Positions 2,614 through 63,718 of a stretch of 64,000 bases of DNA are shown one piece after another; within the stretch, counting starts at the first letter, position 1, and each line of letters opens with the position of its first letter. The notes below the pieces were generated by a model. It did not search any database. It saw only the letters and a list, made by a program, of their open reading frames with translations, and was not told where the DNA came from. A program made the translations under genes and the position numbers. The DNA comes from Squalus acanthias (lineage: Eukaryota), in contig CM059432.1 of NCBI GenBank assembly GCA_030390025.1, positions 40,984,001 through 41,048,000 of the forward strand, given 5' to 3'.

Positions 2614-4346
2614 TATGACTTTAACATTATGACTTTAGCATTGACGTAATGCTGTTTCACCAGTGTACAGATGCTAAACTTGTCTAGTGTAAATCAGATA
2701 TCAAGGTCTGAATTGACTCCAAAGTGGGACTCCCTTCTCTCGGCGGGGGGTGACTCCACTTCAATCTGGTGTCAGGTCATAAGAATTAATTGGAATAACA
2801 GCAAAATATAATTTGATTGAGTAGCTTGCAATTATTACTATTGCACATGATTTAGGGTTTATGAACATAACTTCTAGCACTATTATTTACAATTTGGTGT
2901 TGGGATATGCTTCTCAGTTTGAGGTTAAAGCGCATTGTTTGAGGAGAGTAAAGGGAACATTTCTATACATCTAACCTGGGAATGTTTAATGCTGACATGG
3001 TGTGTCAAAAATAGAAAAGTGTTCCATTCCCCAGCACTAACGTGCCTCACCTTGATGAGCACAAATATTTGCCAAAGATACAAATGAAAACCTGTTCAAA
3101 GTAAAGTTTAACTGCTGATTAGATGATGCACATGTGTGTGAACTTGTGTGCATGCCTGACTTGTTTAGATAGGCAAACTACTGTACAGTTCAGGGAGGGC
3201 TATTTCTCTCCAGCACTTTGAAAATAGCATAGCGATAGGAATATTTGTTTCAAATAAAATGCAGTACTAATAAAGGTGGATAGCAATGATTTTCTAGTGC
3301 TGCAACAGAAAGCCGTTGTAGTATGACCTTGGAATTAATGAACGTTATAAATCTTAACAGTGAATAAACCACTTGTCTGTTCTATGATTGCAATTTCAGT
3401 AAAATTTTTGTAAATTTTACTGTTTTATAAGTCACTTCCCTATATTTACAGAAAATAAAGCCTACATTAAAGTGGAGCATTTTTTTTTTAACCTCGAGCT
3501 TATTTTTTATTTGCCAAGCCGGTCAACAGCAACATTATCGCCAGTATCCAGAGATGATTTTGTGTCAGGTGCTGTGCATAGACACCCTTACAAGTGCCTA
3601 TAATTTAAAGTTTACTCCAGAGAAAGACCTTTCAATTGCTTCATCCTCAAAGTGCATTCATCTGAAAAATGCACAGATCATTTTGTAATATTTTTCAAAA
3701 ATAGATCATACCAATTGGCCTCCATCTTTAACACCATTGTGAGGTTGGTCTGAAAACCATGATGTCTTGGTTTAGCCTCAGCCCTCACCACCCATCCCCA
3801 ATCTCTGAAGCATTCCTACAATTAAGTTAGCTTGGCATATATTTAAGGAAATAGGACTGGTGTTTATTTCATGCTTCAGTGATCATAATGAAAGCAGTGA
3901 CCTGTTGTTGTCATTGACTTGAAATAACAACTAAGTTCTAAACCAGCACAGAGTGGGGAAACTGGAACACTCAAATGGAGCATTATACAGTACCTGGAAT
4001 GCGATGCACACCTCCACTGTCCTTTCACATTGTACAAGAAAACCAAGCCTTTAATTCGCAAGTGCAATCCAGAAGAAACCTCTTGTGGTTTTGTGTATGA
4101 CGCTACTTGTCATGACTTGAACAAAAGATTTTTTACCACTAAATCATAGATGAGAGTGGGTGGTGCTGAGTCATTTGAATCTGTACAACTAATCTAAGGC
4201 TAGTTGTCCTAAAGCTGCCTAACAAACTACTTTTGTAGCTTTTTCAATTATTAGAAAGGAGTTGCTCTAGTTTTTTAACCACTTGGTTAAATGCTTCAAA
4301 AAATTGTCTTAGCATGCAGTATTACATAGTTTGTGTTAGGTGTACA

Positions 4347-14586: not shown

Positions 14587-15389
14587 TACCTGAACCCCCA
14601 AGTCCCTTTGGACCTCCACTGATTTTAGCCTTTCACCATTTAGAAAGTACCCTGTTCTGTCCTTTTTAGGTCCAAAGTGGATGACCTCCCATTTGCCTAC
14701 ATTGAAATCCATTTGCCACAGTTTTGTCCATTCGCTTAATCTGCCGATATCGCTTTGTAATTTTATCATTTCATACACACTACTAACAATGCTGCCTATC
14801 TTTGTGTCATTGGCAAATTTGGATATGTAACTTTCTATGCCCTCATCTAAGTCGTTACTAAATACTGTGAATAGTTGAGGCCCCAACACAGATCCCTGCG
14901 GGACACCACTAGTCACATCCTGCCAATTTGAGTACCTACCCATTATCCCTACTCTCTGTCTCCTGCCACTCAGCCAATTTCCTAACCAGGTCAATAATTT
15001 GCCCTCAATTCTGTGGGCTTCTTCCTTAGATAACAGTCTCTTATGTGGGACTTTATCAAATGCCTTCTAGAAGTCCATATAAATAACAGCCATAGACATT
15101 CCCCATCCCACTATATAGTCAAAACCTCAAAAAATTCAATCAGGTTTGTCAGGCATGACCTACCTTTCACAAATCCTCTCTGATGAACTGAACATTTTCG
15201 AGCTGTTCAGTCACCCTATCCTTAATTATGACTCTAGCAATTTCCCGACAACAGCTGTTAGGCTAACTGGTCTTTCAGTCCCTGGTTTCCCCCCTCTCGC
15301 CATTCTTAAAAAGCAGAGTGACATGCGTAATTTTCCAATCTAAAGGAACGGTTCCTGAATCAAGAAAACTTTGGAAGATTATAGTTAAT

Positions 15390-18300
15390 CTTATAGATAA
15401 ATCACTGTCAGAGCAGTGGGAGGCATTCAAGGAAGAGATGGTGAGGGTTCAGTGTAAATATATTCCCACAAAGAAAAAGGGTGGGACTCCTAAATCTAGA
15501 GCCCCCTGGATGTCATGGGCATACAGGGTAGGATAAGGCAAAAAAGGGAAGCTTATGTCAGATACGAGAGCTAAATACTGCAGAAAGCCGAGAGGAGTAT
15601 CGAAAGTGCAGGGGTGAAATTAAAAAGGAAATTAGGAAAGCCAAGAAAATGTAGGGCCTATTAGAAACCAAAAAGGTAACATGTATGTGGAGGTGGAAGA
15701 CATGGGCATGGTTCTTATTGAATACTTTGTGTCTGCACAAAAGAGAGGGACGATGCAGACATTGTAGTTAAGGAGGAGGAATGTGAAATATTAGATGAAA
15801 TAAACTTAGTGAGAGAGGAAATATTAAGGGATTTAGCATCTTTGAAAGCAGATAAAAACAGAGTGTAAGAGCTTCTACAAGTATGTAAAAAGGAAGAAAG
15901 TAGCAAAAGTGAGCGTTTCGTCCCTTAGAGGCTGAGACAGGAGAAATTATAATGGGGAATGAGGAAATGGCAGCGATTTTAAACAAAAAATTTGTCTCTG
16001 TCTTGACAGTAGAAGACACAAAAAGCATACCAAAAATAGTGAGGAGCCAAGGGGCGAATGAGAGTGAGAAACTTAAAGTAGTTAAGATCAGTAGAGAAAA
16101 AGTACTTGAGAAACTAAAAGCCGACAAATCCCCTGGACCGGATGACCTACATCCTCGGGTTCTAAAAGTGGTGGCTGCAGAGATATTGGATGCATTGGTT
16201 GTGATCTTCCAAAATTCCCTAGATTTTAGAATGGTCCCAGACGATTGGAAGGTAGCAAATGTAACCTCGCTATTCAAGAAAGGAGGGAGAGAGAAAGCCG
16301 GGAACTACAGGCCAGTTAGCCTGACATCGGTCGTCGGGAAAATGCTGGAATCCATTATTAAGGAAGTGATAACAGGGCACTTCGAAAATCATAATATGAT
16401 TAGGCAGAGACGACATGGTTTTATGAAAAGGAAATCGTGTTTAACAAATTTATTGGAGTTTTTTGAGGATGTAACTTGCAGGGTAGATCAAGGGAACCAG
16501 TGAATATATATTTGAATTTCCAAAAGGCATTCAATAAAGTGCCACATAAAAGGTTGCTACGCTAGATAAGGGCTCATGGGATTGGGGGTAATATATCAGC
16601 ATGGCTAGAGGATTAGTTAACAGACAGAAAACAGAGAGTAGGGATAAACGGGTCATTTTCAGGTTGGTGGGGTGCCGCAAGGATCAGTGCTTGGGCCTCA
16701 GCAATTTACAATCTAAATGACCTAGATGAAGAGACCAAGTATAATGTATACAAGTTTGCTGACGATACAAAGTTAGGTGGGAAAATAAGCTGTGAGGAGG
16801 ACACAAAGAATCTGCAAAGGGATATAGACAGTTTAAGTGAGTGGGCAATAAGGTGGCAGATGTAATAGAATATGGGGAAATGTGAGGTTATTCACTTTGG
16901 TAGGAAGAATAGAAAAACAGAATATTTTTTAAATGGTGAGAAACTATTAAATGTTGGTGTTCACTGAGATTTAGGTGTCCTCGTACAGGAAACACAAAGT
17001 TAGCATGCAGGTACAGCAAGCAATTAGGAAGGCAAATGGTATGTTGGCCTTTATTGCAAGGGGGTTGGAATACAAGAGTAAGGAAGTCTTACTACAATTG
17101 TACAGGGCTTTGCTGAGACCACACCTGAAGTACTGTGCCCCACAGTTTTGGTCGTCTTATCTGAGGAAGGATATACTTGCCTTAGAGGCGTTGCAAAATT
17201 GATTCCTGGGATGAGAGGGTTGTGCTATGAGGAGAGATTGAGTAGATTGGGAGTATACACTCTGGAGTTTAGAAGAATGAGAGGTGATCTCACTGAAACA
17301 TAAGATTCTGAGGGGGATTGACAGGGTAGATGCTGAGAGGTTATTTCCCCTTGCTGGAGAGTCTGGAACTCGGGAGCATAGTCTCAGATTTAAGACTGAG
17401 ATGAGGAGGAATTGCTTCACTGAGGGCTGTGAATCTTTGAAATGTTCTACCCCAAAGGGTTGTGGATGCTGAATCGTTGAGTATATTCAAGGCTGGGATA
17501 GATAGATTTTTGGATTCTAGGGGAATCAATGGATATGGAGATCGGGCGGGAAAGTGGAGTTGAGGTCGAAGATCAGCCATGGTGGAACAGGCTTGAGGGG
17601 CTGTATGGCCTACTACTGCTCCTAATTCTTACGTTATAAATCACCAGGCCCGGATGAAATGTATCCCAGGCTCTAAAGAGAAGCAAGGGAGGAAATAGCG
17701 GAGGCTCTGACCATCATTTTCCAATCTTCTCTGGCTACAGGTGTGGTGCTAGAGGACTGCTAACATTGTACCGTTGTTTGAAAAGAGAGAAAGAAATAGA
17801 CCGAGTTATTACAGGCCAGTCAGCCTAACCTCGGTGTTGGGCAAATTATTAGAAAAAATTCTGAGGGACAGTATTAATCATCATTTAGAAAGACACGGAT
17901 TAATCAAGGACAGTCAGCATGGATTTGTTAAGGGAAGGTCGTGTCTGACTAACTTGATTGAATATTTTGAGGAGGTAACGAGGAGGGTGGATGAAGATAG
18001 TGTGTTTGATGTAGTCTGCATGGATTTTAGCAAGGCCTTTGACAAGGTCCCACATGGCAGGTTGGTCGAAAAAGTAAAAGTCCATGGGATAGTTGGATCC
18101 AAAATTGGCTCAGTGGCAGGAAGCAAAAGGTAATGTCGACGGGTGTTTTAGTGTCTGAATGGCTGTTACCAGTGGGGTTCCACAGGGCTCAGTACTAGGT
18201 CCCTTCCTTTTTGTGGTATATATCAATGATTTAGACTTCAGTGTAGGGGGCATGATTAAGAAGTTTGCAGATGATACAAAAATTGGCCATGTGGTTGATA

Positions 18301-19162
18301 GTGAGGAAGAAAGCTGTAGACTGCAGGAAGATATCAATGGACTGGTCAGGTGGGCAGAAAAGTGGCAAATGAATCCAATCCGGAGAAGTGTGTGGTGACA
18401 TTTGGGTAGGGCTAACAAGGCAAGGGAATACACAATAAATGGTAGGATACTGCAAAGTGTAGAGGAACAGCAGGACCTTGGAGTGCATGTCCACAGATCC
18501 TTGAAGGTAGCAGGACTGGTAGATAAGGTGGTTAAGAAGGCATATGGGATACTTTCCTTTATTAGCCAAGGCATAGAATATAAGAGCAGGGAGGTTATGC
18601 TTGAACTGTATAAAACACGAGTTAGGCCGTAGCTAGAGTACTGCGTACAGTTTTGGTCACCGCATTACAGGAAAGATATGATTGCACTAGAGAGGGTACA
18701 GAGGAGATTTACGAGGATGTTGCCAGGACTGGAGAATTTTAGCTATGAGGAAAGCTGGAGTTGTTTTCTTTGGAACAGAGGAGGGTGAGGGGATTCTTAA
18801 TTGAGGTGTATAAAATTATGAGGGGCCGAGATAGAGTGGATAGGAAGGACCTATTTCCCTTAGCAGAGAAGTCAATAACCAGGGGGCATAGATTTAAAGT
18901 AATTGTAGAAGGATTAGAGGGGAGTTGAGAACATTTTTCACCCAGAGGGTGGTGGGGATCTGGAACTCACTCCCTGAAAGGGTGGTAGAGGCAGAAACCC
19001 TCATTGCCTTTGAAAAGTACTTGGATATGCACTTGAAGTGCCGTAACCTACAGGGCTACGGAGCAAGAGCTGGAAAGTGGGATTAAGCTGGATAGCTCTT
19101 TTTCGGCCGGCACAGACATGATGGGCCGAATGGCCTCCTCCTGTGCTGTAAATTTCTGTGAT
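15390..19162 (+). mobile_element. CR1 LINE (15390-15856 and 17636-19162) containing a second CR1 (15857-17635)
   Basis: Host reads ...gcagataaa | tcaccaggcccggatg (DKSPGPD) across the insert, with ATAAA duplicated; RT ORFs 15952..16503, 17774..18133 and 18159..18398. Confidence 0.85.
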
Positions 19163-19802
19163 TCGTCTCTGCTGGATTGAAACTCAGATACTCCAGGAGT
19201 AGGTTCAAATTCATGACACTAGCCAGACTCCCCAGTATTATGAAGTGGTGATAGTACTGTATATTGAACTCTTCAGATTTCTTCCCTGGAATATCAACTT
19301 TTTTTTTGCAAACTAGCATTTGAAAATATGCTTTTTATTCCTGCTTTTCATTTTTAAAACCAAAGACCATATGGGATTCCCTGAAAACTCTGTTGTGGTA
19401 CTGAGCTATAATCAGGAAGGATTCGGCTTTGTGCTGACCACTGGGCTTATTTTGCACATTAGTGCTAACATGCTATAGGAAAAAATTGTAATCTAGCCAG
19501 TACCCTTTTAATATTGTGGAACATACTTGCCATCACCACTAGAACTTCAGTCTCGTGATGCACAGCTCTAAATATGGTCTCTGTACACAGCTCAAGTTTA
19601 GTAGGACCATATCAACAAATTTACTGCTGAATATTTTCACAGTTCATGTGAAGATCTCACTGAAGTTTCAAATGTCCATCATTATGCTTTCCTAGTGGGT
19701 AGGGGAGGCTGGCTACAGGTCAGCTATGCAAATATTTACCATGTCCACCAATACACTCCACTAAAGTCCTACTGCCAACACTTGTTGCATTACTAATATA
19801 AA

Positions 19803-20989: not shown

Positions 20990-21897
20990 CGAATCTTAGA
21001 ATGGTTACAACACAGAAGGAGGCTATTCGGCCCGTCGAGCCCGTGCCAGCTCTCTGCAAGAGCACTTCAGCTAGTCCCACTCCCCCACCCTTTCTCCGTA
21101 GCCCTGCAAAAAAAAATTCTTTCAGGTACTTAGCAAATTCCCTTTTTAAAGCCACGATTGAATCTGCCTCCACCACCCTTTCAGGCAGTGAATTCCAGAT
21201 CCTAACCACTCGCCGCGTAAAAAAGTTTTTCCTCATGTCGCCTTTGGTTCTTCTGTCAATCCCCTTAAATCTGTGTCCTCTGGTTCTCAACCCTTCCGCC
21301 AATGGGGACAATTTCTCTCTATCTACTCTGTCTAGACCCCTCATGAATTTGAACACCTCTATCAAATCTTCTTTCAACCTTCTCTGTTCGAAGGAGAACA
21401 ACTCCAGCTTCTCCAGTCTATCCACGTAATTGAAGTCCCTCATCCCTGGAACCATTCTTGTAAATCTTTTCTGCACCCTCTCTAAGGCCTTCACATCCTT
21501 CCTAAAGTGCGGTGCCTAGAATTGGACATAATTTTCCAGTTAAGGCCGAACCAGTGTTTTATAAAGGTTCATCATAACTTCCTTGCTTTTGTACTCTATG
21601 CCTCTATTTATGAAGCCCAGGATGCTTTTTTAACCACTTTTTCAACCTGCCCTGCCACCTTCCAACGATTTGTGCACATATACCCCCAGGTCTCTCTGTT
21701 CATGCACCCCCTTTAGAATTGTACCCATTAGTTTATATTGCCCCTCCTCATTCTTCTTACCAAAATGTATCACTTCGCACTTTTCTGCGTTAAATTTCAT
21801 CTGCCACGTGTCTGCCCATTTCACCAGCCTGTCTATGTCCTCTTGAAGGCTATCACTATCCTCCTCACTGTTCACTATACTTCCAAGTTTTTGTCAT
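20990..21897 (-). mobile_element. CR1 LINE 3' fragment
   Basis: ORFs 20919..21494 and 21642..21875; same subfamily as 12285-14586. Confidence 0.9.
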
Positions 21898-22762
21898 ATT
21901 AGGAAATATTAATTTATTTTCATTGAAAATGTTTGTTTCTGCTTTCATTGTAAACAGTTGAGAATACTGAAGGACAAACTTACCTTGAGAAATGATTTAA
22001 TCTTTATACTAGTAGTGTTTTGTGTTTGACTAAGCAAAGCTGCTGCTGATGTCAGAAACTAAAGGCAGTTTGTTTCCTCCGAGACTGTGGCCTGTGGGTC
22101 TTCCTGAAGTGCTGTCAGTTTCACCCAGAGTATAAAAATACATGCTAAAACCATCCAGACTTTCACCATTTGCTCATTGTTCTTTTCCAACCTGATAGAG
22201 AATATCTTTCTCTTCATTCTGTGCCACCCCTCACTCTGTTGGAAATGTACTGAAATCCCATAGAATTCAGTACTGGCTGGTTGGAAGAAGGGCGCTCTGA
22301 ATAGATGCTACAGTTGACCTCTGTGTTTCTGGTTTAAGAGAAGGGAAAGAAGAAAAAAATCAGCCATAAGTGAGCCTCCTCAAAAGTGTGTGTGTGTATT
22401 CATGTCCAGTGAGCAGGATGATTGGCTGTGATGACTTTTGTGGTCCAAATAGCCTACTGACTTGACTGACTGGACTCTGAGGCATGACTTGAGCGAGTTA
22501 TGGAGAGCATACCCCAGCGGAAGTCAATATAATGTCCTTCAGGAAAGGAAGGGAATAAAATTGGGAGACGGAAAGATAATAGAAGAAGACAAAGAAATGG
22601 GCTCTTCCATGGTTCTGGTTTGTTTGGTTCCTAATGAGGATCATAATTACATTAAAGAATAGAATGTTCGATAGACTGAGATACAACTGACATTTAAATT
22701 CTTGTGTACTCGTCATGATTAGGTGCCATGCACTCATCAGTTTGCGGTAATGTTCTTTGTAG

Positions 22763-24719: not shown

Positions 24720-27700
24720 GGTTATTTCTGTTGTTATCTCTGGTTATCAGTTGGGAGTTGCTACTCATTTTTGATGTCAGTTTAGTGAGTCTTTGTTGTA
24801 CATTTTCTATGGCCCAGAACTGCGCGCAGTACTCCAACTGTGGTGTAACTGATGTCTTATGCAAAGTCAACATCACTTCCTTTCCTTTATTCTGCAGCCC
24901 ACCTATAACCCAGAATCCCATTTGCCTTTTTTATGGACTTTTATTCCGGCACTGGCACCTTTAAAGATCTGTGTATTTGTACCTATAGAACTCTCTGAAT
25001 CTGTCATCTTTTGTTCTTTTTCCTAAATTGAACCACTTTACATTTCTATGTATTGAACTGCATATTCCATCTGCCTGCCCCTTCTTTTAGCTTGTCTGTA
25101 TTTTCCTGCATTCTTCCTCCATGCCTTCTAATTTGATATCATCAGCAAACTTCCTCTTGTACCTATGTCCAAGTTATTTATATAAATGGAAAATAAGAGG
25201 TCCCAGCACACATTCCCGGGGTGCACAGCACTGCCCACATCCTGAAGCAGTTTGATATACAATGCCCACTGCATTCCCTTTAACTATACACTGATTTCTT
25301 CAAATTCAATTAAGGTAGTCAAGCATGATCTGCCCTTCACATATCCATGCTGACTGTCCCCGATTACAGTTTTCTGATTTATCTCTTTTTCCCTTCTTTT
25401 GAACCGGAATGTAACATTTGCCACCCTCCAGCCCTTTGGTACAATTCTAATTTCCAAAGATTTAAAGATTAGTACCTCCAACTTCTCCTCCCCAACCTCC
25501 TGGGATTCTATAGGAACATAGGAACAGGAGTAGGCCATTTAGCCCCTCGAGTCTGTTCTGCCATTCAATGAGATCATGGCTGATCTGTGACCTAACTCCA
25601 TATACCCGCCTTTGCCCCATATCCCTTAATACCTTTGGTTAGCAAAACACTATCAATCTCCGATTTAAAATTAACAGTTGACCTAGCATCAACTGCTGTT
25701 TGCAGAAGAGAGTTCCAAACTTCTTCTACCCTTTACGTGTAGAAGTGTTTCCTAACTTCACTCTTGAAAGGCCTGGTTTTAACTTTTAGGCCACGTCTCC
25801 CAGTCCTAGACTCCCCAACCAGCGGAAATAGTTTATTTCTCTCTACTCTGATCAGTACCCTTAATGTCTTAAAAACTTCGATCAAATCACCCCATTACCT
25901 TCTAAATTCCAGGGAATACAACCCTAGTTTGTGTAATCTCTCCTCGTAATTTAACCCTTTGAGTCCAAGTATCATTCTGGTAAATCTACGCCGCACTCCC
26001 TCCAAGGCCAATATATCCTTCCTCAGGTATGGTGCCCAGTACTCCAGGTGTGATCTAACCAGGGCTTTGTATAGCTGTACCATAACTTCTACCCCCTTGT
26101 ATTCTAGTCCTCCAGGTGGGTGGGTGTGCTGTGAGGTGGATGCAGAGAAACTCCAGTATGATTTGGACAGGTTGGGTGATTGGGCAGATGCATGGCAGAT
26201 GCAGTATAATGTGGATAAATGCAAGGTTATCCACTTTGGTGGCAAAAACAGGAAGGCAGATTATTATCTGAATGGCAATAGATTGGGAAAAGGGGAAGTG
26301 CAACGAGACCTGGGTGTCCTTGTGCACCAGTCGCTGAAGGTAAGCATGCAGGTGCAGCAGGCGGTTAAGAAGGCAAATGGTATGTTGGCCTTCATAGCGA
26401 GAGGATTCGAGTACAGGAGCAAGGATGTCTTGCTGCAGTTGTACAAGGCCTTGGTGAGACCACACCTTGAGTATTGTGTGCAGTTTTGGTCGCCTTATCT
26501 GAGGAAGGATGTTCTTGCCATGGAGGGAGTGCAGCGAAGATTCACCAGACTGATGCCTAGGATGGCAGGAATGACGTATGAAGAGAGATTGGGTCGATTA
26601 GGCTTATATTCGCTGAGTTTAGAAGAATGAGAGGGGATTTCATTGAAACTTATAAAATTCTAACAGGACTAGACAGACTAGATGCAGGAAGGATGTTCCC
26701 GATAGCGGGGGAGTCCAGAACCAGGGGTCACAGTCTAAGGATAAGGGGTAAGCCATTTAGGACTGAGATGAGGAGGAATTTCTTCACCCAGAGAGTGGTG
26801 AACCTGTGGAATTCTCTACCACAGAAGGCAGTTGAGGCCAATTCATTAAATATATTCAAGAAGGAGTTAGATATATTTCTTAAGGCTAAGGGGATCAAGG
26901 GATATGGGGAGAAAGAAGGGACAGGGTACTGAATTTGGATGATCAGCCATGATCGCATTGAATGGCGGAGCAGGCTCGAGGGGCCGAATGGCCAGCATTC
27001 CATTAGCCTTTTTCATTATTTTTTGTACCTGTCCAGACCCCTAAGTCTCTTTGGACCTCCACTATTTCTAGCTTTTCACCATTTAGAAAGTACTCTAAAC
27101 TAGCCTTTTTAGGTCCAAAGTGGATGTCCTCACACTTGCTAATATTGAAATCCATTTGCCACAGTTTTGCCCATTCACTTAATCTATTAATATCTCTTTG
27201 TAATTTTATGCTTCCTTCTAAACTGCTTACAATGCCACCTATCTTTGTATCATCGACAAACGTAGATATGTGGCTCTCTTATCCCATCATCTAAGTTGTT
27301 AATAAATACGGTGAATAGTTGAGGTCCCGCAGGACATCACTAGTCACATCCTGCCAATTAGAGTACCTGCCTACTATCCTTACTCTCTGTCTCCAGCCGC
27401 TCCGCCAATTTCTTAACCAGGTCAATAATTTGCCTTCAATTCCATGAGCTTCAACTTTAGCTAACAGTCTCTTATGAGGGACTTTATCGAATGCCTTCTG
27501 GAAGTCCATATAAATAACATTCATAGACATTCCCCTAGCCACTACTTTAGCCACCCCTTCAAAAAACTCAAGTATGACCTACCCTTTACAAATCCATGCT
27601 GGCTCTCTGATCATCAGGAAGTTCAGTCACTCTATCCTTAATTGTAGACTCCAGTAATTTCCCGGCAACAGATGTTAGGCTAACTGATCTATAATTCCCT

Positions 27701-28080
27701 AGTTTCCCTGTCTCACTTTTCTTAAATAGCGGAGTGACACGTGCAATTTTCCAATCTAAAGCAACAATTCCTGAATCAAGAGAACTTTGGAAGATTATAG
27801 TTAGGGCATCTGCAATGTCCTCACTTACTTCCTTTCAAACCCTGGGATGGAAACCATCTGGTCCTGGGGATTTGTCACTCTTTAGTGCCATTATTTTCTT
27901 CATTACTGTTATTTTGCTTACGTTGATTTTGGTGAGTCCCTGTCCCTGATTCAATATTAGTTTCTTTGGGACGTCTGGCATGCTATCCTCTTCCTCTTCT
28001 GTAAATACTGACGCAAAGTAATTATTTAACATGTCGCCCATTTCCTTATTTTCATTTACAATATCACCGTTATCTGAGAT
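24720..28080 (-). mobile_element. CR1 cluster: an old fragment (24720-25510) and a younger CR1 (25513-26112 and 26993-28080)
   Basis: RT-like ORFs 24643..24921, 25284..25538, 27291..27554 and 27835..28140; tail ataggaacataggaacagg at about 25510. Confidence 0.85.
26113..26992 (+). mobile_element. CR1/HER1-type 3' fragment nested antiparallel in the previous CR1
   Basis: ORFs 25959..26630 and 26627..26932 closely resemble the C-terminus of 4451..6124. Confidence 0.9.
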
Positions 28081-30554: not shown

Positions 30555-32020
30555 GCTTCAGCAAAAGCCATCTTCAATAGCTCAAGAGTCAGGGATAATT
30601 CCCTTAGATTGTAAGGTAGCTCATGTAGTTCCAAGGGGACAAATCAGAGCCAGGGAACTACAGGCCCATCAGCCTGACATCCATCATTGGGAAGATGCTT
30701 GAAGGGATCCTAAGAGATGACCTTTATGATCACTGGGAAAGAGAAGGGGCCATTAGACACACTCAACACGGCTTCCAGAAAAGAAGGTTGAGTCTTACAA
30801 ACTTGATTTGAGTTTTTTTGAAGAAGTTACTCGGTTCGTGAATGAGGGTAATCAGGTTGACATTATCTACCTGGACTTACAGAAAACCTTTGATAAGCTA
30901 CCTCACACTAGGTTACTTCACGGGATAGAACCTTGTGGTATCTGTGGGAATTTGATATGCTGGATTAGGAATTGGCTCCAATTCCACAGCCAAAATGTTC
31001 AAGTCAACGGTTGTGGATCAGCCTGGAGGCAGGTTAGTAGTGGTATCCCCCAGGGAGCGGTGTTAGGCCCGCTACTTTGCACTGTTTTATATTAATGACT
31101 TGGACAGTGGTGTTAGGGATATGATCAGTATGTTTACAAATGATAAAATTTGTTCAAGGGTTAAGACAGTAGAAGAGTATAATCTAATGCAGAGATTTAG
31201 ATGCACTAGGGGAATGGGCCAAACAATGGCAAATTACATTTAAACTCGATAAATGTAGTGTCATGCATGTAGGTAGGACCAACACAGAATACATTTACAG
31301 AATGATACTGAAGGAGTTGCAAGAGAAAAGCATCTGGGTTCACGACCAATGCAGAGAAGCTGTAGCCAAAACAAAATAGGGTATTGGGTTGTATTAATAC
31401 AATCCTTCAGTACAAATCGAAGGACACCATTCTGTCATTATACAGGTCATTGGTTAGACCGCATCGGGAGTACTGTGTCCAGTTCTGGACCCCACACTTG
31501 GTGGGTGATATAGTAGCCTTGGAAAAGGTTCAGAAGAGGGTTACGAGAATGATTTCTAACTTAAAGAACCGTAGTTACTCAGAGGCTTAAAAAGCTGGGT
31601 CTGTTACTTTAGAGCAGCATAGACTTATAGCCGACTTAATATAGGTATATAAAATAATGAAAGGGTCTGATTGTGTGCCTATTTATAGATTATTTCAGTT
31701 TGACAGATTAGGGAGGACCAGGGACATGCATTTAAACTACACAAAAGTAGGAATAGGCTAGATGTTAGGTGCTTCTTCTTTCTGAGTAGTGAGCCTCTGG
31801 AATGCATTGCCGGCTTGTGCGGTGGGTACCGATTCTCTGAATGCGTTCGAGAGAGCTGGACCAGTTCTTGGCTGGGGCAAAATCACATGATATAGAAGGT
31901 AAGTGGATTAACAGTTAACATACGCATGGTCAATGTGATCTCCTGGACTGGTTTTGATTGCCCAAGAGAGTCAGAGAGGAATTTACCAGTTTGGTTTTCC
32001 TCATTGGCCCTGGTTTAGCA
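30555..32020 (+). mobile_element. Old CR1 LINE fragment
   Basis: Degenerate RT ORFs 30808..31095 and 31384..31590. Confidence 0.85.
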
Positions 32021-32169: not shown

Positions 32170-33612
32170 AGTTCCCTCCCTTCAGATACTGCTCCCCTCT
32201 AATGTTCCCTTTAAGCTGCGCGGATGTGCAGCCAGTGGGCCAGCTTTTAAATTGAAAAAACCGCGCATGCGCGGACTTTTGAATGGGCCGTGCGGCCCCA
32301 AAAAAATTACAGGGAACATTGCTCCCCTCCCTTTCAAATCTGCCGTCATCACCCTCTTCCTCAGAAAAAACACTCTTGACTCCTCCGTCCTTGCAAACAA
32401 CTATCCAATCTTGCTCTCCTCTCCAAAGCCCTTGAACGTGTTGTTGCTTCCCAAATATGTGTCAATCTTTCCCGAATCTCCATGTTTGAAGCTCTCCAAT
32501 TAGGTTTCCGCTCCTGCCATAGCACTGAAATGGCACTAATCAAAGTCACAAATGACATCCTCTTTGACTGTGACTATGGTGTACTATCCCACCTAATTCT
32601 TCTCAACCTCTCTACAAGCTGTGACACAGTTGACCACGCCATCCTCTTCCAACAACTCTCTTCCATTGTCCAGCTGAGTGGGACTTCCCTCACCTGGTTT
32701 CACTCTTAACTATCCAATTATAGCCAAAGAATTTCCTGCATTGGGTTCTCTTTGCAGCCCTGCACTTTTACCTCTGGAGTCCTCCAAGAATTTATCCTTG
32801 GCCCCCTCCTATTTCTCATCTACATGCTGCCTCTCGGCGACGTCATCCGAAGTCATGATGCCAGGTTCCATATGTATGCTGACGACACCCTGCTCTTCGT
32901 CACCACCATCTCTCTACCCCTCCACTGCCTCTGTGTTGTCAGACTGCTTGTCTGACATCTAGTCTTTGATGAGCCACATTTTCCTCCAATTAAACATTGG
33001 GAAGATTGAAGCATTGCTTGCAGCCCCGCCACAAACTCCGTTCCCTCGCCAACGATTCCATCCCCCCTGCCTGTCCACTGCCTGAGACTAAAACAGACTG
33101 TTTGCATCCTTGGCATTCTATTTGACTCTGAGCTGAGCTGATCCCATATCCTTTCCATCACAAAGACTGCCTACTTCCACCTCCGTAACATCACCCGTCT
33201 CTGCCCCTACCTCAATTTATCTGCTGCTGAAACCCTCATCCATGCTTTTGTTACTTCCAGACTCGACTATTCCAATGTTCTCCTGGCCAGTCTACCATCC
33301 TCCACCCTTCATAAACTTCAGCTCATCCAAAGCTCTGCTGCTCGTATCCTAACCCGCACCAAGTCCCGCTCACCCATCACCCCGTGCTTGCTGACCTACA
33401 TTGGCTCCCGGTCCACCAACGCCTCGATTTTACAGTTCTCACCCTCGTGTTCAAATCCTTCCATGGCCGCACCCCTCCCTATCTCTGTAACCTCCTCCAG
33501 CCCTACAACTATCCGTGAACTCTGCATTCCTTCAAATCTGGCCTCTTGTACATCTTCCACTCCCTCTGCCCCACCATTGGCGGCTGTGCCTTCAGCTGTA
33601 TAGGTCCTGAAT
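32170..33612 (+). mobile_element. L2 LINE fragment
   Basis: Collinear with 1-1270; ORFs 32482..32709 and 32752..32955 (YADD). Confidence 0.88.
32200..32321. mobile_element. 122-bp hAT-type MITE inserted in L2
   Basis: TIRs (t)AATGTTCCCTtTAA / TTAcAGGGAACATTG; 8-bp TSD CTCCCCTC at 32192-32199 and 32322-32329. Confidence 0.85.
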
Positions 33613-39408: not shown

Positions 39409-39509
39409 GTAAGGCTGCTGTAGTGAAAATCTAATTGCAGTTCTGCACACACAAGTCCCTACTGCTTACGTTAAAATATTTATATATTTTTAATATGGAT
39501 AAATTACGG

Positions 39510-40212
39510 AAGAAGATTCATGTCCTTGTACATGAATCACAGAAAGTTAACATGCAGGTACAGCAAGCAATTAGGAAAGCAAATGGTATGTTAGCTTTTG
39601 TTACAAAGGGATTGGAGTATAAGAGTAAAGAAGTCTTACTACAATTATACAGGGCACTGGTGAGGCCACACCTGGAGTACTGTGTACAGTTCTGGTCTCC
39701 CTACCTAAGGAAAGACATACTTGCCTTAGAGGGAGTGCAGCAAAGGTTCACTAGACTGGTTCCTCGGATGAGGAGAGATTGAGTAGACTAGGCCTATATT
39801 CCTTAGAGTTTAGAAGAATGAGAGGTGATCTAATTGAAACACATAAAATTCTTAAGGGGCTTGACAGGGTTAATGCTGGGAAAATGTTTCCCCTGGCTGG
39901 GGAATCTAGAACACTGGGTCACAGTCACAGAATAAGGGGTAGGCCATTTAGGACTGAGATGAGAAATTTCTTCACTCAAAGGGTTGTGAATCTTTGGAAT
40001 TCTCTACCCCAGAGAGCTGTGGATGCTCAGTTGTTGAGTATATTCAAGACAGAGGTCGATTACATTTTTGGGAACTAAGGGAATTAAGCGATATGGGGAT
40101 AGTGGAGGAAGGTGGAGTTGAGGTAGAAGATCAGCCATGACCTTGTTGAATGGTGGAGCAGGCTTGAAGGGCCAAATGGCCTACTCCTGCTCCTATTTCT
40201 TATGTTCTTATT
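39510..40212 (+). mobile_element. CR1 3' fragment
   Basis: ORFs 39435..39782 and 39779..40078; tail ctcctatttcttatgttctta. Confidence 0.9.
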
Positions 40213-45699: not shown

Positions 45700-46915
45700 T
45701 TCATTCATTCATGGGATGTGGCATCGCTGGCAAGGCCAGCATTAATTGCCCATCCCTAATTGCCCTTGAGAAGATGGTGGTGAGCCGCCGCCTTGAACCG
45801 CTGCAGTCCGTGAGGTGAAGGTACTCCCACAGTGCCGTCAGCGAGGGAGTTCCAGGATTTTGATCCAGCAACGATGAAGGAATGGCGATATATTTCCTGC
45901 TGCCCTTGTCCTAGGTGGTGGAGGACGCGAGTTTGGGTGGTGCTTCCGAATAAGCCTTGGTGAGTTAGAATCATAGAATGGTTACAGCACGGAAGAAGGC
46001 CACTCGGCCCGTTGAACCCATGCCGGCTCTCTAAGAGCACTTCAGCTAGTCCCACTCCCCTGCCCTTTCCCCGTCGCCCTGCAAATTTCTTTCCTTCAGA
46101 TACTTATCCAACTCTCTTTTGAAAGCTGTGATTGAATCTGTGTCCACCACCCTTTCAGGAAGTGCATTCCAGATCTTTACCACTCGCTGCGTAAAAAAGT
46201 TTTTTCTTACGTCGCCTTTGGTTCTTTTGCCAATCATCTTGTAGATGGTACACACTGCATCCACGGTGCACCAATCAAGCGGGCTGCTTTGTCCTGGATG
46301 GTGTCGAACTGCTTGAGTATTGTTGGAGCTACACTCATCCAGGCAAGTGGAGAATATTCCATCACACTCCTGACTTGTGCCTTGTAGATGGTGGAAAGAC
46401 TTTGGGGAGTCAGGAGGTGAGTCACTCGCCCCAGAATACCCAGCCTCTGACCTGCTCTTGTAGCCACAGTATTTATGTGGCTAATCCAGTTAAGTTTCTG
46501 GTCAATGGTGACGTCCAGGAAGTTGATGGTGGGAGATTCAGCAATGGTAATGGCGTTGGCTACCAAGGGGAGGTGGCTAGACTCTCTCTTGTTGGAGATG
46601 GTCATTGCTTGGCATTTTTGTGGCGTGAATGTTACTTGCCACTTATCAGCCCAAGCCTGAATGTCATCTCGGTCTTGCTGCATGCGGGCACGGACTGCTT
46701 CATTATCTGAGGAGTTGCAAATGGAACTGAACACTGCTATCATCAGCAAACATCCCCACTTCTGACCTTATGATGGAGGGAAGGTCATTGATGAAGCAAC
46801 TGAAGATAAGCCTAGGACACTACCCTGAGGAACTCCTACAGCGATGTCCTGGAGCTGAGATGATTGGCCTCCAACAACCACAATCATTTATCTTTGTGCT
46901 AGGTATGACTATAGC
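45700..46915 (-). mobile_element. 3' part of the second LINE family (same as 60318-63045), interrupted by a CR1 tail at 45967-46236
   Basis: ORFs 46234..46749 and 45756..46055 (SWNSL...AAHHHLLKGN); tail gccacatcccatgaatgaatg on the - strand. Confidence 0.88.
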
Positions 46916-47109
46916 CAGAGGGCAACTCAGAATAATTTCCTTTGTTCCAAGGCTTCGGTGGAACACTTCCTCGGAACTGGCTGTGGGAATTTAAGTAGTA
47001 TCGGACATTAGGATGCTGGAATTTTTTTTTCCATTAATCACTTTGCACCATGTTAAAAGTTTCTTCCTTGTTAAAATGGGAGCTTACTTGCAAGGCAAAT
47101 GCACCCAAG

Positions 47110-48108
47110 GCTGGTGTCTCCCAAGGATCTATCCTTGGCGCTCTCCTATTTCTCATCTACATGCTGCCCCTTGGCGATATCATCCGAAAACACAGCGTCA
47201 GCTCCACCTCACCCCCACTTCTCTCGCCCCCTCCACTGTTTATAAATTGTCAGACTGCTTGTCCGACATCCAGTACTGGATGAGAAGAAATTTCCTTCAA
47301 CTAAATATCAGGAAGACTAAAGCCATTGTCTTTGGTACCTGCAACAAACTTCGTCCCTCTCCCTGGCATCTGTCTGAGGCCGAACCATACTGTTCGCAAC
47401 CTTAGAGTCATATTTGACCCCGAACTGAGCTTCTGACCACATATCTGTACCATCACGAAGACCGCCTATTTCCACCTCTGTAACATTGCCCAACTCCACC
47501 CCTGCCTTAGTTCATCTGCTGCTGAATCCCTCATCTATGCCTTTGTTACCTCTAGACTTGACTATTCCAACGCACTCCTGGTCGACCTCCACGTTCTACC
47601 CTCTAAACTTGAGGTCATCCAAAACTCTGCTGCCTTTGTCCCAACTCGCACCAAGTCCCGTTCACCCATCACCCCTGTGCTCGCTGACCTACATTGGCTC
47701 CCAGTTAAGCAACGCCTCAATTTCAAAATTCTCATCCTTGTTTTCAAATCCCTCCATGACCTCGCACCTCCCTATCTCTGTAACCTCCTCCAGCCCCACA
47801 ACCCTCCGAGATATCTACGCTCCTCTAATTCTGGCCTCTTGAGAATCCCTGATAATTGCTCAACCATCGGTGGCCGTGCCTTCAGCTGCCAAGGACCTAA
47901 GCTCTGGCATTCCCTCCCTAATCCTCTCTGCCTCTTTCCTCTTTTAAGATGCTCCTTAAAACCTTCTCTTTGACCAAGCTCTTGCTCATTTGCCCTAATA
48001 TCTCCTTATGTGGCTCTGTGTCAAATTTTATTTTATAATGCTTCTGTGAAGCTCCTTGGGACGTTTTACTATGTTATAGGCGCTAGATAAATACAAGTTG
48101 TTGTTGTT
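47110..48108 (+). mobile_element. L2 LINE 3' fragment
   Basis: Collinear with about 430-1473; ends ataaatacaa(gtt)n. Confidence 0.9.
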
Positions 48109-48347: not shown

Positions 48348-48664
48348 TTGAGTCTCCAATTAATCTATGCGCCTGTCTACAATCTGACAAGATTCGACAA
48401 TGCAGTTGCAAGACTAGACTCTAAAATTAAAGGCCAGTTTTCCTTTTGGAGGCAGAATTGCTTGCTATTTATGTAGGAAATGCCTTATATTTTGTCCCAG
48501 GAATAAGGAGAGTAGAACTCATGTTTTCAATAGCCTATCTCTGGCTTCGTGTACCCTCAGTTTCCCTCCATCCACAGTATCTTATAGAAATCATTGAAAT
48601 CACAATGCTCAGATTTGAGGCAGATATGTGCCATCTGTTCTCATTGCAGGATTAACATTTGGGT

Positions 48665-49360
48665 ACACTAGCCTAGTAATTGTATTGCTTTAGTAACCGA
48701 GTGACAGTGGGGGAGAAATTCGCAGGCTCCCCATTTTCCAATGTAAAATCGATGTTAGACGTCCAAACTTTGCGTTGTGATCGGCTGTACCAGAACTGCC
48801 CTGGAAGTCTGCCTTAAAAGGGACAGCTGGAGGCTGTTCAAAAAAAGGCCCAGAAAATTATCACTTTTTATTGTTGTGGGCCCAGGAGAAGCAGGAGTGC
48901 TCCTCCTGGGTCCACATTAAAAACTCCGGCCCACTGGCACCTCAGTGTAGGAATCAGTCAATTTCCCGCCCCCTCCAATCTATAGCCTGTTTCGATTGCG
49001 CAACTCAACGATGGCATTAAAATGAGGCCCAATGACAAATTTGTCTGAGGCCTCAAGCTGCACACGTGGAGCCGTTGCTCCACTGACTTTGTGCCAGTCC
49101 GTTTTGGGAACAAATTGAATTTCTTGGCCAATGAGTTCAAATCCCAGCATAGCAAACTGTGAAACTGAATTCAATAAATCTGGTAATTTATTGGGTAGTA
49201 TCAGAAAACTGCCAGATTGTTGTAAACACGTAACTGGTTCACTAATTTCCTTCACTGAAGGTAACCGAGAACCCCAGATGACTCCAGTCCCGCACTGTGG
49301 TTGACTCTCATTGCCCTCGGGTCCCCCAGGGATAGTGCTGCCCACATCCCAAGAACAAAA
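48665..49360 (+). mobile_element. Degenerate tRNA-derived SINE interrupted by a MITE (48709 to about 49128)
   Basis: MITE starts GGGGGAGAAATTC, as at 1735, and ends GAATTTCTTGGCC; the SINE resumes gagttcaaatccc...ggttcactaat...gcccacatcccaagaac. Confidence 0.6.
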
Positions 49361-58414: not shown

Positions 58415-58834
58415 GGGCAACACGGTGGCATAGTGGTTAGCACTGGTGCCTCACAGCGCCAGGGACCCGGGTTCGAATCTTGACCTCGGGTGACTGTCTG
58501 TGTGGAGTTTGCACATTCTCCCCGTGTCTGCGTGGGTTTCCTCCGGGTGCTCCGGTTTCCTCCCACAGTCCAAAAATGTGCGGGTTAGGTTGATTTGGCT
58601 ATGATAAATTGACCCTCAGTGTTAGGGGGGGATTAAATATGTGGGGTTATGGGGATAGGATGGGATATGTTAGGGGAATTAAATACGTGGGGTTACGGGG
58701 GTAGGGTGGGATATGTGTACTGTGGGGATTAAAGCAGGGACAGGGTACTGGATTTGGATGATCGTATTGAATGGTGGAGCAGGCTCGACAGGCCGAATGG
58801 CCTACTCCTGCTCCTAGATTCTATGTTTCTATGT
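58415..58834 (+). mobile_element. Full-length HE1-like V-SINE
   Basis: A box TGGCATAGTGG, B box GGTTCGAAT, V domain gtttgcacattctccccgtgtctgcgtgggtttcctccgg, CR1-derived 3' end with a TTCTATGT-repeat tail; short TAAAAG duplication. Confidence 0.93.
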
Positions 58835-59798
58835 AAAAGATGGTATTGTTCCCTAACTACTGCAATGAAGTGTCAGCATAGATATAAAGTCCATGGCAGG
58901 CAAAAATGATATGGTCCACAGAAGGAGGCAAAATATACATGGTTTGTAGAAGGAAAGTGATGAACAGGTCAAATGGTCATTTCTCATCCACTCTGTTAGA
59001 ATGCACTGCTGTTTATTCTCTCCTTTTTCACAGTTAAGACATTCCATGGCATGACTTTGAATACTGCATGTAAGACACAGATATTCAGGTACTCATTGAA
59101 ATCTTTCCTAACATATTAGATAAAAACATACTTTCTGGGGTACAGATTCATTAAAATCTCCATTATTAAGATCTTTAAAACAGAATCAGGCTAAATCTAG
59201 GTTTAACCACCAGGGGGCATGGTTCAGCAGCACTGAGTTACTGTCAGTTACAATGACTAAGGAACTGAAAATCAGAATGAATCAACCTGAAGCACGTATA
59301 ACTTTCCCATGAACCACTTTCCCCATGAATCTATAAATTGAACTTGTGGCTTTTTTCTCCTGACCTAATTCTGAAAATCATAAGATTTACAATTTTAGAA
59401 GACAATAAAAAATATAGTTTCAGGTAATAATAAAGATAAATTTGGCAGAGGATAAAGAGTTTATACAAATATTTTCCACTTCACAAAAGGGAAAGAAAAC
59501 AAATCTCTCTCAAACCATTTAGTATTTCTGTTCTCATGCAAATACAGACCACTTTTTGAAACGCTTATGCCCTAGACGACATTTTAAAGTTGTTTGATGT
59601 ATCCTCTCTTCCTATAATTATTTCCGAAAACAAATGTCTATTCTTGGTTTTAGGTCGCACTCAGAACCAATTTTCAAGAATTTCAATCTGTTAATAGATA
59701 CTCTTCCCTTTCATTAGAAAAAGCAATCTAAAACAAGATATGCAAGTTGCTCTAACTAATAATACTGATTCAAAATAATTTTTTTGCTTTTCACTTAC

Positions 59799-59938: not shown

Positions 59939-60317
59939 CTGTCAGAGAAAAAATAAATTTAAGGAACAGGTAAACTTCCTTATTCTTTTCCCATTTAGGT
60001 TTACAGGCAATTTACGTCAGCAAAACTATTTTTATTGGTGAGTACATAGCTAAAAAATAATTTTCTTTCATCATGAAACACCACATCAGTTGCTACATAA
60101 CATATCAGAAAGCATATGTAAAAGTGATGTGATTTATTTCCTCCGCTTTAAAATTTCAATTTTATTTTGTAATCCTGAATATCGCTTATGCATCAGCTGA
60201 TGCAGTTAGTTGCAAATGAAAATCAGTGCTTAAAATAAATTGGATGCCATGTTATCTATCATACAAGTGTGTAACCTAGTATTTCAACAGGGATACAAAA
60301 CTTAAAGTTAATATAAC

Positions 60318-63045
60318 GGGAATGGTAGCGTAGTGGTAATGTCACTGGGCTAGTAATCCAGAGGCCTGGACTAATGATCTAGAGACATCAGTTCAAATCC
60401 CACCACGGCATCTGGGGAATTTAAATTCAGTTAATTAAATAAATCTGGAATAAAAAGCTACTATCAGTAATAGTAACCATGAAACTATCGGATTCTCGTA
60501 AAAACCCATATGGTTCACTAATGCCCTCTGAAATGTAACAAACCGCTACAAAACAAAATAATAAGAATGTGGACGGACCACCTGGCATTGACCTCCTCAC
60601 CAACATCTGGGGGACTTGTGCCAAAATCGGGAGAGCTGTCCCACAGATTAGTCAACCAACAGCACCATAGTCATAGCTTTCAGCCAATGTCCTAAACTCC
60701 TCCATCACCAGGGGTGGCGGCACAGTGGTATACAGTCGGGAAGGAGTGGCCCTGGGAGTCCTCAACATTCACTCCGGACCCCATGAAGTCTCATGGCTTC
60801 AGCTCAAGCACGAGCAAGGAAACCTCCTGTTGATTACCACCTCCCGCCTTCCCACAGCAGATGAATCAATACTCCTCCATCTTGAACACCACTTGGAAGA
60901 AGCACTGAGAGTAGCAAGGGCACAGAATGTACTCTGGGTGGGGGACTTCAATGTCCTGAAGGACATAGCTGCCAGCCTGGGCCTGCGACAGGTGCTGAGA
61001 GAACCAACACGAGGGAAAAACCTACTTGACCTTGTCCTCACCAATCTACCTGTCGCAGATGCATCAGTCCATAACAGTATTGGTAGGAGTGACCACCGCA
61101 CAGTCATTGTGGAGACGAAGTCCTGTCTTCACACTGAAGACACCCTCCATCGTGTCAGGTTAAGCATAGGCAAGGAAACCTCCTGCTGATTACCACCTAC
61201 TGCCCTCCCTCAGCTGATGAATCAGTACTCCGCCATGTTGCACACCACTATGGAAGATGTATGCTATATACAGGGCTAAGCGATCCCACAATCAACGGAT
61301 CAGATCAAAGCTCTGTAGTCCTGCCACATCCAGTCGTGAATGGTGGTGGACCATTAAACAACTAACGGGAGGAGGCGGCTCCATGAATATCCCCATCCTC
61401 AATTATGGTTGAGCCCAGCACGTGTTTGCAACCATCTTCAGCCAGAAGTGCCAAGTGGATGATCCATATTGGTCCCCACCATCACAGAAGCCAGTCTTCA
61501 GCCAATTCGATTCACTCCACGTGATATCAAGAAACGGCTGAGCGCACTGGATACACCAAAGGCTATGGGCCCTGACAACATCCTGGCTATCGTGCTGAAG
61601 ACTTGTGCTCCAGAACTAGCTGCGCCTTTAGCCAAGCTGTTCCAGTACAGATACAACACTGGCATATCTCCGACAATGTGAAAAACTGCCCAGGTATGTC
61701 CTGTCCACAGAAAGCAGGACAAATCCAATCTGGCCAATTACCACCCCATCAGTCTACTCACAATCATCAGCAAAGTGATGGAAGGTGTCATCGACAGCGC
61801 TATCAAGCGACACCTGCTTACTGATGTCCAGTTTGGGTTTCGCCAAGAGCACTCGGCTCCTGACCTCATTACAGCCTTGGTCCAAACATGGACAAAAGAG
61901 CTGAATTCCAGAGGTGAGAGTGACTGCCCTTAACATCAAGGCAGCATTTGACCGAGTGTGGCATGAAGGAGCCCCAGTAAAACTGGAATCGGGGGGAAAA
62001 CTCTCCACTGGTTGGAGTCATACCTAGCACAAAGGAAGATGGTTGTGGTGATTGAAGGTCAATCATCACAGCCCCAGGACATCGCTGCAGGAGTTCCTCA
62101 GGGCAGTGTCCTAGGCCCAACCATCTTCAGCTGCTTCATCAATGACCTTCCCTCCAACATAAGGTCAGAAATGGGGATGTTCACAACTCCTCAGATAATG
62201 AAGCAGTTCATGCCCACATGCAACAAGACCTGGATGACGTTCAGGCTTGGGCTGATAAGTGGCAGGTAACATTCGTGCCACAGAAGTGCCAGACAATGAC
62301 TATCTCCAACAAGCGAGAGTCTAACCACCGCCCCTTGATATTCAATTGCATTACCATCGCCGAATCCCCCACCATCAACATCCTGGGGGGGTCACCATTG
62401 ACCAGAAACTTAACTGGATTAGCCACATAAATACTGTGGCAACAAGAGCAGGTCAGAGGCTAGGTATTCTGTGGCGAGTGTCTCATTTCCTGACTCCCCA
62501 AAGCCTTTCTACCATTTACAAGGCACAAGGAAGGAGTGTGATGAAATACTCTCCACTTGCACGGATGAGTGCAGTTCCAACACCACTCAAGAAGCTCGAC
62601 ACCATCCAGGACAAAGCAGCCCGCTTGATTGGCACCCCATCTATCACCTTAAACATTCACTCCCTCCACCACTGGCGTACCATGGCTGCAGTGTGTACCA
62701 TCTACAAGATGCACTGCAGCAACTCGCCAAGGCTTCTTCGACAGCACCTCCCAAACCCACGACCTCTTCCACCTCGAAGGACAAGGGCAGCAGACGCATG
62801 GGAACACCACCACCTCCAAGTTCCCCTCCAAGTCACACACCATCCTGACTTAGAAGTATATCGCCGATCCTTCATCGTCGCTGGATTAAAATCCTGGAAC
62901 TCCCTACCTAACAGCACTGTGGGAGTACCTTCACCACACGGACTGCAGTGGTTCAAGAAGGTGGCTCACCACCACCTTCTCGAGGGCAATTAGGGATGGG
63001 CAATAAATGCTGGCCTTGCCAGCGACACCCACATCCCATAAAAAC
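60318..63045 (+). mobile_element. Degenerate near-full-length APE-RT LINE (clade uncertain) with a tRNA-derived 5' end
   Basis: A and B boxes at 60326-60336 and 60391-60400; APE (TNIWG, VGDFN, LDLVLTN, SDH) at about 60593-61140; RT (PQGSVLGP) near 62100; ends HHHLLEGN* followed by cccacatccca. Confidence 0.85.
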
Positions 63046-63479
63046 AAATTTTAAAAAAGTTGTTCCAGAACATAGGTCACGGTGAGTTGGAGTTTATACT
63101 GTTGCAAAGGTGGGTGAGTGCCGGAGTGAAGGAGTTGGTGAACAATGCACATCCCCACAGAAATGGTTTGGAAAGATGTTTGTAAGGTATCAGCTGAGAC
63201 ACAGAAATTTCAAATAATTTTTATTGGTTTGTTACAAATAAGCAGTGTCTTGCATCCCCACTGCAGGCACATAAATAAATAAATAACTGTTTTCACACAT
63301 ATCACAGTTATATAAATAAATTAGTCTGTGCATATCTCACGGGGGGAAAGCAAATTTTTACCTAGGTTATCAATGGACACTCTATGGTGTGATTTTTTAT
63401 AGTGAGGGCCAAAAAGTACATGAACTTAAGAAAAGGTTAAACAAGTTTGCATCTTTGTTTCTTTACTAAATATCTTTTC

Positions 63480-63625
63480 AGAGCAGTGTCCGCGGCCCAA
63501 CTATCTTCAGCTGCTTCATGAATGATGTGCCCTGCATCATGAGGTCAGAAGTGAGGCTGTTCGCTGATGATTGCAGTGTTCCTCTCCATTTGCAATTCCT
63601 CAGATAAGGAAGATGTCCAAGCCCG
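63480..63625 (+). mobile_element. RT fragment of the same LINE family
   Basis: GPTIFSCFMND...EVRLFADDC. Confidence 0.75.
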
Positions 63626-63718
63626 AATGTTAAAGTTCGCTCATGTGCAAAACTGCGAATGGGCCGCGCCGCCCCTTAAAGGGGCCGTGCACCCAAAAAT
63701 AAATTAGGGGGAACATTG
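63626..63718. mobile_element. Partial hAT-MITE related to 32200-32321
   Basis: gaatgggccgcg...ttagggggaacattg right end. Confidence 0.6.

Follow-up and report, generated by a model that had tools for sequence, protein, structure and literature searches.

A tRNA-derived head as the 5' end of the Zenon LINE family in sharks and rays

Can a LINE that codes for its own endonuclease and reverse transcriptase begin with the promoter of a SINE? As a working rule, coding capacity and transcription by RNA polymerase II (Pol II) belong to LINEs, and SINEs are non-coding and depend on Pol III (PMC5786205, PMC10886601, available text). A locus of Squalus acanthias raises the question. It lies in a 64,000-nt stretch of contig CM059432.1 (assembly GCA_030390025.1, positions 40,984,001 to 41,048,000), here called the window. 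An earlier note described an element in it as an autonomous retroposon with a SINE-type promoter for a 5' UTR and could not say whether the family was catalogued.

Anatomy and identity of the element

The element at 60318-63048 belongs to the Zenon LINE of elasmobranchs (CR1 group) and has decayed. Zenon is described by Stuart et al. (2026) as an ORF1-less, poly-A-tailed CR1-group lineage of sharks, rays, coelacanth and hagfish (PMC13343379, accessible parts). The element has a single APE-RT ORF and no ORF1, a poly-A tail, identity to the Zenon consensus and, at its 5' end, a tRNA-derived head. All its parts lie on the + strand.

The head (60318..60410) consists of an A box, TAGCGTAGTGG, at 60326-60336, an anticodon-like arm at 60345-60361 with a Thr-like loop AGT, and a B box, GTTCAAATCC, at 60391-60400, both boxes being where the earlier note had placed them. 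Its match to the Rfam tRNA model is weak (14.4 bits, E 4.8, gathering cut-off 29), ARAGORN calls no tRNA gene in it, and it folds no better than shuffles (z -1.44); judged by its sequence, the head is therefore tRNA-derived without being a tRNA gene. Behind it lie a non-coding body (60411..60536, with AATAAA at 60438 and 60449) and a linker to the endonuclease (60537..60592) with three deletions of 21 nt, 4 nt and about 55-60 nt. No ORF was found between head and APE. Between head and ORF there was no T-run, and neither the tail nor the duplication whose absence the earlier note had reported.

The APE endonuclease domain (60593..61160) starts with LLTNIWG at 60593 and is frameshifted, with internal deletions. 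Its frame into PKxGELSHRLV requires one base fewer near 60609, and most contigs lack that base (contigs from 4 of 21 listed runs were aligned to the locus). A repeated APE stretch of 110 nt (61148..61257), at 82-83% to 60792-60900, displaces part of the ORF. The remainder of the ORF (61258..62993: linker, reverse transcriptase and C-terminal part) contains several stops and frameshifts and closes with the stop codon TAG at 62991-62993. A short 3' UTR of 46 nt begins at 62994, with AATAAA at 63002, and the A-rich tail (63040-63048) is followed at once by the first TTTT (63049-63052). Pfam gives the endonuclease E 2e-4, below cut-off, and RVT_1 in two pieces (E 7e-5 and 1.9e-7), and two of the five translated pieces of the element had no Pfam match. 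Among full-length proteins, APE-RT proteins come nearest, at 35-45% across the C-terminal piece.

A leader of ~440 nt, ~938 codons (taken from P0023 positions 25-962) and a tail of ~55 nt make up the 3,314-letter Zenon consensus. That length has no room for an ORF1; full-length copies with a different 5' UTR and an ORF1, which would have spoken against the earlier note, are thus not what the consensus describes. The anatomy and the family identity we regard as established with near certainty; almost surely, too, a complete Zenon element is ~3.3 kb long and consists of a tRNA-derived head and body, one APE-RT ORF, a short 3' UTR and poly-A.

This copy is dead. As the earlier note saw, it is decayed and internally deleted, with frameshifts, stops and a duplicated piece. 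Compared by hand with the consensus, it lacks 87, 21, 4 and ~55-60 nt before APE, mostly between short repeats; the 87-nt block is absent after 60523, and the 4 letters missing behind 60569 appear in contigs. Further deletions lie in the ORF. The earlier note's ~200 nt from head to APE agrees with the 193 nt counted from the B box here, but this spacing is short for the family, since ~170 nt were lost in the four deletions relative to the published consensus (by hand).

In the contigs of the four runs the flanks are single-copy (depth 0-41) and every bin from 60308 to 63115 is repeated, a depth that cannot rank parts of the element. Poly-A loose ends occur behind 63033-63042 in all four. One contig of organism B spans the flank into the head, so the insertion is common to a second organism. 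None of the 15 joints listed (there are 4,889 further joints) runs from head to tail.

A 5'-truncated sister copy lies on the - strand at 45708..46921 (84-89%). It is interrupted by a piece of another LINE, ends in A, has no TTTT and reads AATTAA where the element has AATAAA. A short Zenon RT fragment (63478-63629), 80-84% to element and sister, lies 430 bp past the tail.

The head in the Zenon family

We compared ten Zenon consensus rows (PMC13343379 Table S2) over the first 400 letters of each. Seven are elasmobranch, from five species in five orders (white shark, whale shark, catshark, three from dogfish, and stingray). All seven begin with the A-box/B-box head and body and run into the linker within those letters, two of them visibly extending to the APE start. 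In every one the 5' end lies 5-10 nt ahead of the A box, and by eye the boxes are kept and the spacer between them varies by indels. The B box reads GTTCRAATCC in six of the seven and is degenerate in the stingray consensus; as far as the 1,004-row sheet can be searched, no other row of it has this motif. By hand, the window copy agrees with SquAca_Zenon-1 in 197 of the first 206 nt (nine substitutions, no gap), and its APE start is identical to that in the SquAca_Zenon-3 row. Two further sequences continue the junction: a Heterodontus gene model from an independent locus (P0001) holds body end, linker and APE in one row, and P0066 connects body, linker and APE start.

The head-APE junction thus recurs beyond this locus and, on these sequences, the head is the 5' end of the Zenon family in sharks and rays. 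Since the junction occurs in both groups, we infer that it is a family trait older than their split. The earlier note's retroposon accordingly stands as an ORF1-less LINE of autonomous type, with a tRNA-derived head at the 5' end of its family; the promoter role that the note gave to the head is taken up below.

The three hagfish and coelacanth Zenon rows start differently, without such a head in their first 400 letters. The head also fails to appear in a lepidopteran Zenon derivative and in the DNA upstream of a headless relative, L001, which together with those rows marks it as a derived gain. L001 is stop-free and apparently full-length at 420-3560, 44% alike in RT, with a leader of ~300 nt lacking A and B boxes; no A/B box pair was found upstream of it, and two poor pairs lie upstream of L061. 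ARAGORN found no tRNA in 26 of the 80 related loci, which says little because the program misses the element's own head too. Rfam gave no match on four related loci.

Zenon makes up 0.7-6.8% of the five shark and ray genomes listed, with 4.4% in dogfish and 6.8% in white shark; the elephant shark has 0.018% (PMC13343379, accessible parts). Intact ORF2 copies are rare, at 3/612, 0/2313, 1/1419 and 0/59, with denominators that run from 59 to 2,313 per family. The corresponding cell for SquAca_Zenon-1 reads 675852 (PMC13343379 Table S3, part available), a date conversion (June 3750) of what was probably 6/3750.

An RT tree was built with FastTree from 101 rows (78 of 80 loci, 14 proteins and 9 of 11 window stretches), rooted at the midpoint, with rows of <170 aligned residues dropped. 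In this tree, which holds no labelled Zenon reference, the element's RT grouped with invertebrate-type relatives (0.94) and not with the other LINEs of the window, to which it is 24-27% identical. No relatives were found in viral contigs or in prokaryote genomes. Fragments of the family are present in shark gene models, and Zenon pieces are spliced into predicted host proteins (P0001, P0006, P0010, P0024, P0025 and P0063), among them an immunoglobulin-domain model in Heterodontus and a potassium channel in Heptranchias. These are likely gene-model errors.

Transcription and translation

To explain the architecture, we propose that an ancestral headless Zenon gained a SINE-type head, by template switch or recombination, before the shark-ray split. 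TFIIIC would bind the A and B boxes and Pol III would start 5-10 nt ahead of the A box, reading through the whole element because its sense strand has been cleared of TTTT, until the flank offers its first T run and ends transcription. Translation of the transcript, which lacks a cap, would use a non-standard start (non-AUG, reinitiation, or a frameshift after upstream AUGs), and the APE-RT would copy its own RNA. This copying would proceed through target-primed reverse transcription, as is general among non-LTR elements. Head capture followed by Pol III transcription, taken as a full mechanism, is in our judgement slightly favoured. More tentatively, at a confidence just short of even, we suggest that Zenon, which has come to form 4-7% of some shark genomes, is an autonomous coding retrotransposon whose entire 3.3 kb Pol III transcribes, using a captured tRNA promoter; that its RNA is translated cap-independently, perhaps without an AUG; and that its codons and Phe content have been reshaped against terminators.

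The sense strand of the element holds no TTTT in 2,725 nt. The TTTT-free stretch around it (60169-63048 on +, 2,880 nt) is the window's longest and ends at the tail; the next-longest measure 964 nt on + and 1,151 nt on -. Mononucleotide shuffles lead one to expect 4.39 TTTT on average (P=0.006), and the same protein recoded with L001 codon usage reaches zero at P=0.029. Significance is lost under dinucleotide (P=0.079), trinucleotide (P=0.39) or synonymous-codon shuffles (1.96 expected, P=0.10), but these stricter nulls neither confirm nor cancel the signal, as they partly absorb the effect being tested. All controls contain TTTT: every one of 14 further repeat stretches in the window (strands from BLAST, verified in part) and 38 of 38 related RT stretches hand-picked from 80 loci have at least one; within the 38, the ten equally low in T hold 37 in 17,653 nt (P(0)=0.0065). 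The eight loci in the element's own clade have 2-17 runs each. The comparison sets one decayed copy and 910 nt of its sister against control loci that include near-duplicates. The terminator depletion that the earlier note proposed to look for is therefore seen in the counts and against the controls but fades under the dinucleotide, trinucleotide and synonymous nulls.

Shorter runs and codons show a similar pattern. TTT runs number 9 against 19.9 expected (P=0.005), and Phe is about halved (P=0.019): 12 of the element's 684 codons encode it, whereas in six relatives 158 of 4,655 do. A preference for third-position C in place of T is seen with Phe and likewise with His, Tyr, Asp, Ser and Val; part of the lack of TTTT could then reflect a general strand bias. 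Six contig-supported changes to T, among the 40 of 254 differences listed, create no TTTT.

Alternatively, Pol II makes the coding RNA; the head would then be a 5' UTR that helps Pol II, binds TFIIIC or signals translation, and the Pol III product a short by-product. We consider this a serious possibility, though probably not the answer. LINEs are stated to use Pol II, and Pol III processivity to limit length (PMC10886601, available text); all described LINEs are taken to use Pol II, and 'Pol II (or pol III)' is written of non-LTR promoters with no example in the passage concerned (PMC3894237). The AATAAA 32 nt ahead of the element's poly-A fits Pol II 3' processing, capping would solve the problem of translation, and the weak synonymous-shuffle result and the C-over-T bias leave room for a TTTT-poor strand of other origin. 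Against Pol II, the family's 5' end sits where Pol III would start in the consensus rows, with boxes kept across five orders, and 2.9 kb pass without TTTT. Two further features are awkward for it: an AATAAA only ~110-135 nt from the 5' end in six of the seven rows (first 400 letters, by eye), and, for cap-dependent scanning, eight ATGs ahead of the APE motif in this copy.

Translation poses its own question for a Pol III transcript. Of the consensus rows, HypSab_Zenon-1 alone both has full spacing and extends to the APE start within the first 400 letters. In this one row, by hand, the APE frame runs open for 41 codons upstream to a stop, Arg/Lys-rich and with no ATG, and the ATGs near the APE start are in other frames. 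The headless L001 has a Met directly at the APE start (by eye), and P0066 and the deleted SquAca_Zenon-2 row suggest spacings that would bring an ATG into frame. Among non-LTR elements, a non-AUG start, reinitiation and entry of the IRES type have all been discussed (PMC3894237, available text). The top ORF2 lengths (739 and 747 aa) were considered as support for a missing AUG and dropped, the first Met in a shark fragment giving ~690 aa.

The ATG-less HypSab_Zenon-1 frame and the rarity of intact ORF2 copies would also suit a headed 3.3-kb form that is non-autonomous, a giant SINE made by Pol III, carrying an untranslatable Zenon ORF and moved in trans. We think this improbable: the accessible tables list no headless Zenon consensus for the five species, the full APE-RT frame is kept across sharks and rays, the P0066 and SquAca_Zenon-2 spacings offer a possible start, and few intact copies are expected of an old family. 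A SINE inserted by chance beside a 5'-truncated LINE at this locus only, as might be read from the lack of a bridge between head and APE among the contigs listed and of a recognised target-site duplication around the whole element, can be dismissed, since the same junction stands in all seven published consensus rows, P0001 and P0066, no SINE tail separates head from ORF, and this copy's own deletions account for contigs that fall short of bridging the two.

Related elements and significance

The earlier note also pointed to a short element with the same head and tail and took it for a SINE derived from the LINE by deletion. This old relative (48661..49360, +) has a diverged head and body, a tail remnant and no ORF. 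The likeness holds only loosely, because head and body are 63% alike to those of the element over 156 columns, the tail shares just one 11-nt and one 6-nt stretch, and an insertion of ~420 bp interrupts the element at ~48709-49128. Either an old copy with internal deletions or an older SINE with Zenon modules would account for it. As the head was gained, other Zenons being headless, a SINE donor of the head is as plausible as a SINE offspring of Zenon.

The insertion itself is MITE-like: its ends are 17-nt terminal inverted repeats (76%), and its centre holds a 26-nt hairpin (48868-48923). A second tRNA-headed SINE occurs at 58420-58835 (+) and 13499-13896 (-), with a different body and copies 95.5% alike. 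Its A and B boxes are exact and stand 44 nt from each other; we take it to be of HE1/V-SINE type. Other LINE fragments, nested, lie at 4350-6800, 12295-19165, 20990-21900, 25500-28030, 30600-31700 and 39500-40200. They form one clade apart from Zenon and are probably canonical CR1. A further RT-bearing repeat, presumably L2-type, has three copies (1-1258, 32344-33598 and 47111-48108; 73-78%).

The element shares its 5' sequence, APE start, poly-A and lack of ORF1 with the elasmobranch Zenons (SquAca_Zenon-1/2/3, CarCar, RhiTyp, ScyCan and HypSab_Zenon-1; PMC13343379, accessible parts) and shows no family-level difference from them beyond the decay of this copy. With the Zenons of insects, hagfish and coelacanth it shares the ORF1-less CR1-group organisation and poly-A. 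Zenon gives internally deleted short derivatives, as in SIDE Persaeus, a lepidopteran Zenon derivative with no tRNA homology or Pol III promoter (PMC6740152, available text). Canonical CR1 of the HER1 type has an esterase ORF1, or clusters with such elements, and has a microsatellite tail; the element differs in its poly-A tail, its lack of ORF1 and its separate clade in the RT tree.

Like tRNA-derived SINEs (SINE2), the element carries A and B boxes in a tRNA head, then a body, and ends in a LINE-type tail. SINEs, however, are 100-700 bp long and non-coding, and this element is 2.7 kb (3.3 kb in the consensus) with an APE-RT ORF, so that it has the SINE2 head without being short or non-coding. 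Its Thr-like loop agrees with MetaSINE heads, which are most like tRNA-Thr (PMC4824008, available text); in MetaSINEs the 66-bp Meta domain directly follows that Thr-like head, and motif searches of the searchable supplements gave no match. SacSINE1 (Deu) is reported with an L2-type tail and HE1 (V) with HER1 as tail partner, both unlike the element's tail. The Deu domain is, we assume, a different sequence from the element's body, which matched no named domain in the sources covered.

Small-RNA heads have been joined to LINE or LTR sequence through template switch in three other settings, according to the available text of each source: on ORF-less derivatives among bipartite LINE derivatives (Kojima 2018, PMC5786205), in tRNA/L1 chimeras, which are single dead-end insertions at 21 human loci with mostly antisense tRNA halves (PMC13174262), and on the non-autonomous TRIMs of TRIMp3 (PMC10886601). 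Unlike these, Zenon has the tRNA head on a full coding element of an amplified family. The cited literature, in its accessible parts, covers SINEs with Zenon tails, headed ORF-less LINE derivatives, tRNA/L1 chimeras and Pol III TRIMs. A tRNA head on a family of coding LINEs is not described in the available text of PMC5499810, PMC4824008, PMC6740152, PMC7245038, PMC11481361, PMC5786205, PMC13174262, PMC3747384, PMC10886601, PMC7140322, PMC3894237 or bioRxiv 10.1101/443036, and no report of a tRNA-headed LINE in sharks was found in the full-text literature, a search that lay outside Repbase, Dfam, SINEBase and closed journals. The family that the earlier note could not name is catalogued as Zenon, its head unremarked: the main text of PMC13343379, where available, has no mention of tRNA, promoter or polymerase III, and SINE occurs once, in the references. 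The tRNA-headed Zenon is already catalogued as sequence, its architecture apparently passed over.

A SINE head on a full APE-RT ORF, in a family at 0.7-6.8% of genomes, breaks the structural half of the rule that divides LINEs from SINEs, and some of the SINEs annotated among shark repeats may in fact be 5' ends of LINEs. If Pol III makes Zenon RNA, a vertebrate would have a natural Pol III message of kilobase length; the translation of an uncapped retrotransposon RNA, and the origin of SINEs through plain deletion from a headed LINE, would then become testable.
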